Shown one piece after another: positions 5,186-37,878 of a DNA stretch of 64,000 nucleotides. The position numbers were made by a program, and so were the translations under genes. Location: assembly GCA_964016885.1 (NCBI GenBank), contig OZ024741.1, positions 144,522,001 to 144,586,000 of the forward strand, written 5' to 3'. This stretch comes from Eledone cirrhosa (taxonomy: Eukaryota). Position 1 is the stretch's first letter, and every line of letters starts with the position of its first letter. The notes beneath the pieces are model-generated. The model made no database searches. It was not told where the DNA came from and was given only the letters and a program-made list of their open reading frames with translations.

Positions 5186-5682
5186 TTCGTTTTGCTTTGT
5201 TTTCGTTTGTTGTCTTGTCCTCTCTTTCTTGATTTTCCTAAGTTTATCATTATTAATTTGTGACGAACCTTTTTGCTCTTCTCCCCTCATTAATCTCAAT
5301 GGCTCACATTTTAAACTCGATATCTTGCTTTCTTCTTCTTGCCTTTTTCTATTTTCTTTTTTTTTTTCTTCTTTGTTTTACTCCCAAGAGTTTCGTGAAA
5401 TTGTGTGTACTTGTTATAGTTGCTGTTTCGTCTCGTCTCTTACTCCATGGGACAGCACTTTGACTTGTACCATGCGCTGTGACTCCGGGTAGACCAGCAG
5501 TACTATTGGTATGAGTCGAAACTGCCAAGGTCTATCTCAACGGCTGATGACCCTGGAGTTTTGTGTCTCGTTTTCAAAAAAAGATAAATGTTTAAAGTTT
5601 CCCCCTTTAAAAATTTGTTTTTCGTTTTGCCTTGTTTTCGTTCGCTATCCTGTCATCTCTTTGTTGATTTTCCTAAGTTTAT
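5186..5682 (+). mobile_element. Small non-coding element with ~60-bp imperfect direct terminal repeats, carrying a permuted hammerhead
   Basis: ttcgttttgc...gattttcctaagtttat occurs at 5186-5248 and again at 5621-5682; both ends abut (TA)n. Confidence 0.6.
5442..5559 (+). ncRNA. Non-circularly permuted hammerhead ribozyme, copy A (predicted cleavage after GUA at 5502)
   Basis: Helices: ACTCCA-GGG/CCC-TGGAGT; hairpin ACAGC/GCTGT; stem II GACTC/GAGTC; stem III GCAGT/ACTGC plus GGGTAGACC/GGTCTATCT; stem I CTATTG/CAACGG. GAAA at 5518 and CTGATGA at 5544. Confidence 0.75.
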
Positions 5683-20885: not shown

Positions 20886-21380
20886 ATACTTGGGGAGGGT
20901 CATATTTGTGTAATATTGCCAGAATTAATAACAGAACACACTCACTGTTTGGTTGGTTTTCGCTTTTCGCTTCTGTGTCTTTTATATCGGTAATCTAATT
21001 TATTCGGTCCTCAATGTGGCCATTGATTGACCAACGATAGCGTAGAAAATACAATACAACGGGAGGAAACAATAGCACCACTGACGATGTTGCAGATGTG
21101 CAACGAAAGAACTTTGATAAACTATATATATGTGTTTGTGTCTATATTGTATCTGTATTATTTTTAACCGTTGGTCAGTCAATGGCAACATTGAGGACCG
21201 AATAAATTAGATTACCGATATAAAAGACACAGAAGCGAAAAGCGAAAACTAACCAAACAGTGAGTGTAGTCTGTTATTAATTCTGGCAATATTACACAAA
21301 TATGACCCTCCCCAAGTATAACAATATTTGTTTCGACACACGATTTCATATCAAAAACCTCGCAAAACTAATTCATCGCC
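20879..21380. mobile_element. Foldback fragment of a Penelope-like pLTR family (~157-bp inverted arms around a hammerhead)
   Basis: Arms at 20879-21036 and 21169-21326. Related copies at 18775-18915, 24040-24700 and 38640-39120. Shares the terminal motif atgaccctccc..a..ataacaa with the Penelope pLTR. Confidence 0.75.
21076..21119 (+). ncRNA. Minimal hammerhead motif in pLTR family (weak stem I)
   Basis: CTGACGA-T-GTTGCA(gatg)TGCAAC-GAAA-GAAC-TT. The same motif occurs at 24252-24295 and 38707-38758. Confidence 0.6.
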
Positions 21381-24732: not shown

Positions 24733-25402
24733 GGAAAAAATGAAACGAAATTTCATTTCCCACTCTTAGTACGGCTGTTACTTAAATATAAGTATGTACA
24801 CGTACATACATATATGTATACAGACGTACAGTAGTATGTATATATATACAGGCACACATATATATATGTACGTATGGATTCACCGAACATTTATTATAAT
24901 GCTCGGTGTGTTTGTAAACAAACATCCCGAATTTCAAACCACCAGCGCGAGGAGAATATAAGCTAATAGAGGCATAGGAAAAACATTAAAATTAAAAGTA
25001 TAAATTAAAATGAGAAACCAACCTCATACCTAGGTCACACGTGTACAAACTCACCAGGAGTATGTTTCGCCATTTAAATGGGTTCCAATTCGGCCCTGTG
25101 GGTCATCAGCATATGGAAGGCCGATATTGTCCGCACTACTAGAGAGAACTAAAGTAAACTACCTTACGCACGTGTAGATATAATGGAAATGCGTGCACGA
25201 GGCAGTAACCGGTGGCATGAACAGAACAAGCTGCTATTCAATTTAAGGTGCTCAACAGCAGAGAGAGAGCGCAAGGAGCAAATATCAAGTAAAATAACGG
25301 AGCAAAGGACTCACGTATAATCCTGTAATTAAATGAGCTCAAAGGAAAGAGTTTTCCTGAGCACTTTAAATATATATAATATATATATATATATATAATA
25401 TA

Positions 25403-26099: not shown

Positions 26100-26430
26100 A
26101 AGCCGTACAGTCTCTAGCAACCATCGTTACTCATTTGTTCAACACTGACAAAGGAACGCTGTACTAGTTTCAAGCTTATTAGCTATCGTCAGCAACGTAT
26201 ACCTTCCTGCCAGATGATTGAACGTCTGAAAGTATATACTTAGGTTGTTCAGCCGTTAATATGCATAAGGAAAGTATATACAGCCGTAGGTGTGAGCCCC
26301 GCGAGTTGGAGTGGCTTTTCCAGCGCGTCTCCCTTGCCGTCCTCCGGGGAAACGCCTTCTCCATTCTGTCCGCCGGGGCTGTGGGTGGGCCCCATCGCGT
26401 ACCATTACATTAGTTAAATACCATTCTTTC
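26100..26430 (+). mobile_element. 3' fragment of a CRE-like non-LTR retrotransposon
   Basis: CEPRELEWLFQRVSLAVLRGNAFSILSAG matches the QRxSxAxxRGNA C-terminal signature of CRE-clade RLE elements. Confidence 0.65.
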
Positions 26431-31594: not shown

Positions 31595-31603
<9 letters not shown>

Positions 31604-31822
31604 AAACGAAAAATCAGTGATGCATCTGAACTCAATTTATTGTGTGTTACAATTGTTTCGCCGGCGGACAGCTCGAGACGCGATCATTGTGTGGATCTGT
31701 CTGATTCTGGACCCGCAGACAGATCCACACAATGATCGTGTCTCGAGCTGTCCGCCGGCGAAACAATTGTAACACAATAAATTGAGTTCAGATGCATCAC
31801 TGATTTTTCGTTTTATATTATA
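31595..31822. repeat. Near-perfect ~108-bp inverted repeat with a ~12-nt loop
   Basis: tataatataaaacgaaaaatcagtgatgc...ggatctgtctg pairs with cagacagatcc...gcatcactgatttttcgttttatattata. Confidence 0.95.
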
Positions 31823-31895
31823 TCATACTCTGTTCTGTAAGAGCATAGAGTGCTCAACCGGCATACCGCCTATGGAATCATCTAAGCTACCTCCC

Positions 31896-32018: not shown

Positions 32019-32191
32019 ACACACATATATATATATATATATCATTACAAAATAGGAATGATATACATACATACATATCAACTTTAACTGGTGGTATTCT
32101 TATGGGATAAGGCGCATGTTTGAGATTATCTCAAACATGACATTTTAAATTTTAAATGTAATATATCTATCTATATACATATATATACATA

Positions 32192-32255
<64 letters not shown>

Positions 32256-32631
32256 CACACACATATATATATATATATAGATGTTCTCTCTTTCTCCCTA
32301 TCTATTTTGTTTGTATCAACTCTTCCCCCTTCTTTCTCTCCTTTCTCCATCTCACTTTTACTCTCCCTCTCTGCTAGCCACCTCGCTGTTTCTCTCGCCT
32401 TTCCCCATCTCTTTCTCACATACTCTTGCGGAGGTCAGACGTGTTTTTTTTTCTCGTCCACACAGCCTCGGACTTAAGTTCAGTAGTTGATGTCGACTTT
32501 AATTTTTTCTCACACACATGTAATTCGGATTTCTCTCTTCGTTTTTGTTGTTTTCCGGTTTTTTTCGCTGTTTTTCCCCCTTTTACTTCCCTTTTCTCTT
32601 CTGTTATATATATTTTTTCTCTCTCTCCCTT

Positions 32632-32737
32632 TTTTTCCCAATAACTTCCTTTAGTTATTGACACACTGGGGCTAGATATCTTGTCTTTAATGCGTAGAAA
32701 TATCCATGATCCCCAGCAGACAACTGATGAAGGAAAG
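32632..32737 (+). ncRNA. Non-circularly permuted hammerhead, copy C (AUC at 32678-32680)
   Basis: TTTCC/GGAAA; hairpin CAATAACT/AGTTATTG; ACACA/TGCGT; CTGGGG..GATAT/ATATC..CCCCAG; TTGTCT/AGACAA. GAAA at 32697 and CTGATGA at 32724. Confidence 0.7.
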
Positions 32738-32806
32738 TTTTCTCCCGTTCGTGCTTTCCTCTTATTTATAAATACACCTTATCCAGCAACTACACAGCCC
32801 CTGTTT

Positions 32807-32876
<70 letters not shown>

Positions 32877-37301: not shown

Positions 37302-37777
37302 CACCCCCCCCCCCCCCGTTTTGCTTTCTTCGTATTCCAACTACATTTTAAGTTACTTTAAATAGCAACTACACACTCATTTCTATTCTCCATATATTTC
37401 ATCATGTTTTTCGCTGTGACCATTATTATCTCCCCTTCTACCTACCTACTTTGCCACTTTCTACTCTCACCCCTCTTTCTTCACCTCCCTTTCTCCCTAT
37501 CTACTCTTGCCCCATTTTCTTCCTCTCCCTTTCTCCTTCTCACCTCCACCCCTCGCCTGACCGTTTAGCAGTTCTCTTCTCTCTCACAACTGCGGCGATC
37601 GGACGTGTGTCTTGTTCCTCTCGACCACTCAGTCTTGAACTTAAGTTCTCTTATCGAGTGGTCTTGAATTTCTTACCTTAGGTTGCTCGCACATTGCTCG
37701 GTTTGTAGTTTTTTTTTCGCTGTTTTGTTATTGTTTTCTCTTTTCTTCCCCTTTGCCCCTCCCCCTTCCTTCCTTCG

Positions 37778-37878
37778 TTTCTCCAATAACTTATCCAGTT
37801 ATTGAAGCCCTGGGCGGTAGATATCTTGTCTTTAAAGCGTAGAAATATCCGAGACCCCAGTAGACAACTGATGAGGAT
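37778..37878 (+). ncRNA. Non-circularly permuted hammerhead, copy D (AUC at 37823-37825)
   Basis: Hairpin CAATAACT/AGTTATTG; CTGGG..GATAT/ATATC..CCCAG; TTGTCT/AGACAA. GAAA at 37842 and CTGATGA at 37868. Same family as copy C (host elements about 32280-32810 and 37400-37975). Confidence 0.65.

Follow-up and report, generated by a model that had tools for sequence, protein, structure and literature searches.

Rearranged hammerhead ribozymes that cleave are known as types SGC and CSG. According to the available text of Eckert et al. 2023 (PMC10085705), type SGC comprises HRIMA-1 and a variant, and type CSG is known in print from two metagenomic sequences. In the PK hammerhead, as described in the available text of Zhan et al. 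2024 (PMC11300833), the substitute for helix II is capped by A:A and G:A pairs. Among mobile elements, Naiads are characterized in the available parts of Craig et al. 2021 (PMC8557442) by (TA)n targets, partial tandems, inverted 5'-truncated copies and a one-ended tail. Naiads were reported there to be without canonical hammerheads, with 10 'HHR_core' and eight 'HHR_half_core' cases falling off the descriptor. In the portions available, non-LTR retrozymes have units of about 170-400 nt (Cervera and de la Pena 2020, PMC7229834) or 51-972 bp (Li et al., bioRxiv 10.64898/2026.07.22.740005).

We analyzed a window of 64,000 nt (the whole stretch of Eledone cirrhosa DNA introduced above), in which an initial annotation had placed a permuted hammerhead with four stems and an intact core at 32632-32737. 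All of these elements were found at the positions given. TTGTCT (32681-86) pairs with AGACAA (32718-23) at 6/6 positions to form stem I, GATAT (32675-79) with ATATC (32700-04) at 5/5 to form stem III, and CTGGGG (32666-71) with CCCCAG (32711-16) at 6/6 to form helix IV. ACACA (32661-65) and TGCGT (32691-95) pair at only 4/5 positions, leaving an A.C mismatch at a position where G is the majority base of the family. The window copy differs from the majority sequence of its repeat family (family A) at three positions, of which the change at 32663 breaks this central pair of helix IIb. The core is complete (CUGAUGA at 32724-30, GAAA at 32697-700 and AUC at 32678-80, with C17 at 32680). Its blocks occur in the order S (32675-86), G (32697-700) and C (32718-30), a non-circular permutation that is none of types I, II or III. 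The features of the motif are listed below, from 5' to 3'.

32633..32638 (+): U1 strand, partner 32732-32737 (helix IIa); 6/6 pairs, 76% of cells paired, present in the MFE fold
32639..32660 (+): hairpin IIc, 7 bp, between U1 and U2; 96% paired, with other stem sequences in families C, D, E and F
32661..32665 (+): U2 strand, partner 32691-32695 (helix IIb, the predicted stand-in for stem II); 87% paired, A at 32663 breaking the central pair
32666..32671 (+): 5' strand of helix IV, partner 32711-32716; 5/6 pairs double-changed between families A and B
32675..32686 (+): block S, with the stem III strand, AUC (C17 = 32680, predicted cut 32680/32681) and the stem I strand; descriptor and alignment
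32691..32704 (+): block G, with the IIb strand, A11.1 (32696), G12-A13-A14-A15.1 (32697-700) and the stem III strand; descriptor and alignment
32718..32737 (+): block C, with the stem I strand, CUGAUGA (32724-30), A at 32731 and the IIa strand; descriptor and alignment

The strict S-G-C descriptor matched the window twice (at 32680 and 37825) and had no match in 60 dinucleotide shuffles, and the loose descriptor gave three matches (adding 5502) compared with a shuffled mean of 0.28. Rfam covariance models gave no hammerhead match for the window sequence at gathering or at E<=10, and only microsatellite-driven matches were returned. The Rfam hammerhead models are not known to accommodate the S-G-C strand order. 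The nested MFE fold (z -2.2) recovers IIa, the hairpin, IV and III; stems I and IIb are missing from it, and crossing helices are beyond a nested fold. HDV-like/theta, pistol and twister readings were rejected on the basis of strand order.

The motif shares with type SGC its block order, the full core, an extra helix joining the distal ends of stems I and II (an equivalence inferred from the available text of PMC10085705) and a short linker between these stems (4 nt here, typically 3 there). In the published type, block C is assumed to be uninterrupted and to have a direct stem II, whereas the present motif is opened between A9 and 10.1, with a predicted four-way junction inserted there. Moreover, the published examples come from environmental sequence rather than from the genomes of known organisms, whereas the motif here belongs to an abundant animal repeat. 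Because block C is interrupted, we do not assign the motif to type SGC or CSG, despite its working like one of them in the predicted structure. With type CSG it shares a cyclic C-S-G order if U2 is taken as the 10.x strand; it differs by an extra helix, inserted between A9 and 10.1, in which its 5' and 3' ends are located. The PK hammerhead resembles it in that helix II is replaced by a helix with another part of the RNA and in its purine-purine capping pairs, but that ribozyme forms a loop-loop pseudoknot in the usual block order (available text of PMC11300833), whereas the present motif has a junction with two separate partner strands. No single strand joins A9 and G12 here, and the strand between them that pairs with the loop of a stem-loop in PK hammerheads has no counterpart. 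The annotation as a permuted hammerhead was right about the core. The motif is not a plain permutation, however: stem II is absent and a predicted four-way junction takes its place.

The predicted structure in place of stem II

The model of 35 pairs was evaluated on 58 of 212 eligible copies (31/74 of family A and 27/138 of family B), which were chosen on relaxed sequence anchors, with truncated copies dropped. In these copies 91.0% of cells were paired, compared with 81.4% after shuffling and 26-53% when the strands were slid. Double changes were observed in 17/35 pairs. About 10 of them, distributed among IIa, IIb, IV, III and I, are clean swaps between A and B; the double changes come mostly from one evolutionary split (A versus B), and two terminal pairs break in B. 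Stems I and III were paired in 95.7% and 97.6% of cells, respectively, both with double changes, and helix IV in 92.7%, with double changes in five of its six pairs. Helix IIa is the weakest, two of its six pairs being often broken, and it carries a U-A/G-C double change between A and B. The A15.1-U16.1 position is a U-A pair in 55 of the 58 aligned copies, and CTGATGA is present in 74/90 family-A copies. The site predicted initially after 32680, the permuted core and the stems are backed by covariation across families.

A direct stem II, in which the strand following CUGAUGA would pair with the one preceding GAAA, was ruled out: only 32.8% of its cells are paired, no better than in shuffled alignments, and each of the seven family majorities offers one or two of five pairs. 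Instead, the strand before GAAA pairs with U2 and the strand after the core with U1 (TTTTCC). U1 and U2 flank the 7-bp hairpin, giving a predicted four-way junction where stem II would stand. We regard this fold, a hammerhead core whose stem II is replaced by a four-way junction, as highly probable.

The initial annotation had offered another partner for the post-core strand, namely the hairpin loop, as in a PK hammerhead. In the window copy, TTCCTT (32646-51) and AAGGAA (32730-35) can indeed form 6/6 pairs, with a duplex energy similar to that of IIa, and PK hammerheads exist (available text of PMC11300833). Across the alignment, however, this pairing shows no covariation above shuffles (252/500 column shuffles score as high), and it would consume A9. 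It fails in family B, whose loop (TTTATTTA) has no CCT and whose post-core strand is AGGAC, while the other families and the Naiad consensi pair this strand with the one directly 5' of the hairpin. A pseudoknot with the loop is therefore very improbable compared with pairing to U1.

In the predicted four-way junction, IIb, or in families A, B, D and F one residual 10.1/11.1 pair, would stack on the sheared G12.A9 pair. The U2 strand, which would play the 10.x role, would be tethered by helix IIa and the hairpin, and helix IV would hold stems I and II together at their distal ends, apparently like the 'I' helix of SGC/CSG ribozymes.

Repeat families sharing the layout and their probable relation to Naiads

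The motif had been described as embedded in a pyrimidine-rich non-coding element of about 530 bp between (TA)n tracts, and the measured element is 529 bp long and 71% pyrimidine. This element and its relatives in the window are as follows.

32161..32279 (no strand): upstream (TA)n tract, the insertion target
32280..32808 (+): non-coding, 5'-truncated Penelope-like repeat of family A, 529 bp, about one unit (555-591 bp in tandem copies)
32786..32798 (+): 3' tail motif, a candidate RT-recognition signal, common to families A, B, D, E and F
32809..32876 (no strand): downstream (TA)n tract, where the element's 3' end is fixed in most relatives
37302..37975 (+): sister-subfamily copy with a partial tandem repeat, predicted site after 37825; descriptor
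5187..5680 (+): family C copy with the same layout and unrelated stems, predicted site after 5502; descriptor

The longest ATG-started frame of the element encodes 69 aa, no ORF with an N-terminal GIY-YIG and RT was found in it, and the ribozyme lies about 130 nt from the fixed 3' end. Its relatives are 5'-truncated and often partially tandem, with units of 555 and 591 bp (A), 512 bp (B) and about 620 bp (D), and they are often accompanied by an inverted truncated copy that misses the last 50 bases or so. The 13-nt tail motif occurs in 65/92 (A), 188/276 (B), 10/18 (D), 4/9 (E), 3/9 (F) and 0/13 (C) copies, standing 30-57 nt after the core in the families that have it. A similar 9-mer was seen by eye near the 3' end of Acropora Naiad consensi in the available part of the PMC8557442 supplement. 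The genome contains 98 exact matches to a 25-mer taken from the site. Family B copies are 99-100% alike and have therefore been active recently. Sampling of 400 kb regardless of motif revealed six ribozyme loci (four in 200 kb beside the window and two in 200 kb dispersed), from which a number of the order of 10^4 copies is estimated for the 3.0-Gb genome. The repeat landscape appears similar to that of an octopod. Among contigs from three runs of unknown kind, which as contigs are unable to reveal starts or expression, the family was present in two runs of one organism and absent from the third. In run X4, window positions 32740-32806 were covered by one 91-nt contig (depth 610) that contains the 3' tail only, with (TA)n before it.

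In this genome the layout recurs in six or more repeat families. In a homology-free test, the pattern CGAAA-N23-CTGATGA had 2,088 genome matches compared with 89 for its reverse, a 23-fold excess, and families D, E and F, whose stems are new, were recognized from the matching loci. In the seven family majorities, stem III has 5-6 bp, helix IV 5-8 bp and the hairpin 5-9 bp, all with differing sequences. The four core-proximal pairs of these three helices form in 7/7 families and those of stem I in 6/7, and cross-family strand swaps are perfect in only 2-13 of 42 cases. The automated parse gave just 1-2 bp for IIa in C, D and E2 and 0-1 bp for IIb in F and E2, these being majorities of two to seven copies. 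In families C and E, U2 begins with a G that forms the canonical closing pair with C11.1, which makes it likely that U2 serves as the 10.x strand. The 10.1/11.1 position is A-U or G-C in families B, D and F, and A.A in family A. The copy at 37825 belongs to a sister subfamily of A and not to an unrelated family. Among family C copies (loci L171-L200), the core reads CCGATGA in 8/29 and CTGATGA in 9/29, and the ancestral family may have been U4C and be decaying by CpG loss.

Chance complementarity in a pyrimidine-rich repeat would agree with the missing Rfam hammerhead match and the weak folding z-score. That account is refuted by covariation and the genome-wide excess, with the shuffle-tested descriptor and the seven family majorities also standing against it, and its probability is negligible; Rfam models, moreover, are not known to accommodate the strand order. 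The motif is a real variation on the hammerhead class.

The layout U1-hairpin-U2-IV-S-G-IV'-C-U1' was also recognized by eye in the Naiad_Bfor, Amil, Aacu, Anas, Obim and Ovul consensi (from Beroe, three Acropora and two Octopus species) and in three further supplement records of PMC8557442, and each of these consensi has a G-C pair at U2/11.1. Three Nippostrongylus Naiad consensi showed, again by eye, a plain type CSG arrangement with a direct stem II. This reading covers the motif matches displayed in the available supplement and is not a census of the 54 consensi, as line breaks hide others. In addition, the repeat displays (TA)n targeting, 5' truncation, partial tandems, inverted copies and a one-ended tail, as Naiads do, although none of these is Naiad-specific among PLEs. 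It differs from Naiads in having no ORF, and the fold itself was left as HHR_core or HHR_half_core in the available text of PMC8557442. On balance, a Naiad ancestry of the repeat is probable.

No autonomous Naiad was found in this genome by indirect searches covering the best 150 of 10,597 GIY-YIG candidates. Of 30 GIY-YIG loci, 28 could be parsed and all had a C-terminal EN, as did 20 long-frame loci, and a Naiad-type motif after EN was present in 0/150 protein representatives. A motif from the published Octopus Naiad ribozyme had no genome match, two back-translated RT motifs had zero and four (control 8), none in an RT frame, and motif scans of 1.19 Mb for Naiad returned LINE only. A triple with 5.2-kb spacing at C1:111.9 Mb turned out to be a segmental repeat and no element. 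Open Neptune-like PLE frames of 1,096 aa (L151:1775-5062, + strand) and 938 aa (L152:2379-5192, - strand count) were observed, both with no CUGANGA within 900 nt downstream.

Whatever the origin of the ribozyme, the repeat might now be mobilized by such PLEs with a C-terminal endonuclease instead of by Naiads, which would be compatible with the ribozyme itself. Young, near-identical copies (family B), open frames for these PLEs and none for a Naiad, and the description of cephalopod Naiads as long inactivated (Craig et al., available text of PMC8557442) point that way; on the other hand, no permuted core lies within 900 nt downstream of 10 such frames, and the Naiad searches were indirect and limited to the best 150 candidates. 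We consider mobilization by Neptune-like PLEs possible, though the less probable option. Non-LTR retrozymes are likewise non-coding, hammerhead-bearing, tandem-prone and proposed to be PLE-derived, but in the available text of PMC7229834 and bioRxiv 10.64898/2026.07.22.740005 they carry type I hammerheads, whereas the repeat described here has a permuted ribozyme and 510-620-nt units that are mostly dispersed.

In the literature covered, neither this layout nor a resolved Naiad ribozyme was found to be described, and nothing on the layout was found in the available text of PMC13725137, PMC10162972 and PMC12192606. We lean somewhat towards a broader interpretation, in which the motif represents a new hammerhead topology beyond the six block permutations, with A9/10.1 opened and a four-way junction; is the missing Naiad ribozyme from ctenophores to cephalopods, with a plain type CSG relative in nematode Naiads; and drives a large class of circular-RNA, retrozyme-like repeats (of the order of 10^4 copies here), so that non-circularly permuted hammerheads would be common in animals and not metagenomic rarities. 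If true, this would overturn both the statement that Naiads lack hammerheads (available text of PMC8557442) and the working assumption that the CUGAnGA block and the stem II strand are contiguous (available text of PMC10085705). The layout explains why standard descriptors and Rfam miss such motifs, and it suggests that many ribozymes in the genomes of invertebrates have gone uncounted.

Predicted cleavage and the form of the template

Of the 92 long copies in family B, 39 continue upstream of the predicted site through a second ribozyme and one starts on the site, with a smooth drop-off. In 285 pooled copies, four start on the predicted site compared with 1.47 expected (P=0.06). A targeted junction search from -4 to +8 of the site produced 800 matches, of which 70 were fetched, representing 69 distinct copies; two lie at the site, 1-4 non-TA junctions occur at every offset, and peaks appear only at TA microhomology. 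The pooled excess was therefore not upheld, and cleavage-defined 5' ends were rejected. The absence of a pile-up of cleaved 5' ends in these three sets of inserted copies indicates that the usual template is something other than a linear RNA with its 5' end at the cut. This leaves two explanations: a circular or multimeric template, or slow or absent cleavage. A circular or multimeric PLE template was proposed by Cervera and de la Pena 2014 (PMC4209133, available text), and read-through of the predicted site fits their circular-template model. We consider the chances of a circular template to be even. The read-through makes the template form of PLEs, linear or circular, testable in a young and abundant family.

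A further explanation of the missing pile-up is that the fold is real but serves chiefly as a handle to which the retrotransposon RT protein binds, the hammerhead being vestigial or very slow and cleaving little or not at all. The lack of a G-C closing pair in family A would agree with this, and PLE minimal hammerheads cleave poorly in vitro, other roles not being excluded (available text of PMC4209133). Circular or multimeric templates would read through the site too, however. Moreover, the NUH triplet (H not G, with A15.1-U16.1) is AUC in the window copy and conforms in 7/7 family majorities, and the catalytic residues are kept in all seven despite complete turnover of the stems. A handle with little or no cleavage is thus unlikely, and cleavage is favored because the catalytic residues and the H-not-G rule persist across unrelated stems. 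At the level of the family, we predict self-cleavage with considerable confidence. Activity of the particular copy at 32680 is a more doubtful prediction, as this copy may be impaired: A.A rather than G-C at 10.1/11.1 (a trait of family A) and the A.C mismatch in IIb both count against it.

Taken together, the explanation that we find likely is a four-way-junction hammerhead that would self-cleave after 32680 and process the RNA of a non-coding Penelope-like repeat, itself likely derived from Naiads. Read-through transcripts of tandem copies would be cut at successive ribozymes by slow self-cleavage, releasing unit RNAs of about 510-620 nt, which would probably be circularized. A Penelope-type RT/GIY-YIG enzyme would then copy the unit RNAs at (TA)n, producing more-than-unit, tandem and inverted insertions. 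The 105 nt from 32633 to 32737 are a directly testable construct.

Several other hammerhead-like features and repeats were observed in the window. Minimal type I hammerheads at 21081, 21656(-), 23016, 24257 and 38715 belong to one repeat family that ends at (TA)n; they have a long stem II and a stem III of 1-2 bp, the 38715 copy has an inverted partner, and the family is typical of PLE-derived min-HHR elements. Three more type I minimal hammerheads with a palindromic stem III, at 26192(-), 29230 and 31451, lie in other repeat families. At 25109(-), CUGAUGA is followed by a branched region and then GAAA, with CATATG/CATAC flanks, which may represent a further variant of the hammerhead in which stem II is elaborated. 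A near-perfect inverted repeat at 31596-31826, with arms of about 110 bp, adjoins a (TA)n tract and is probably an inverted PLE-type insertion. Finally, a tandem array of 31 units of 99 bp (96% matches) occupies 47542-50636, and a 3.5-kb (TA)n tract at 51018-54493 adjoins it.
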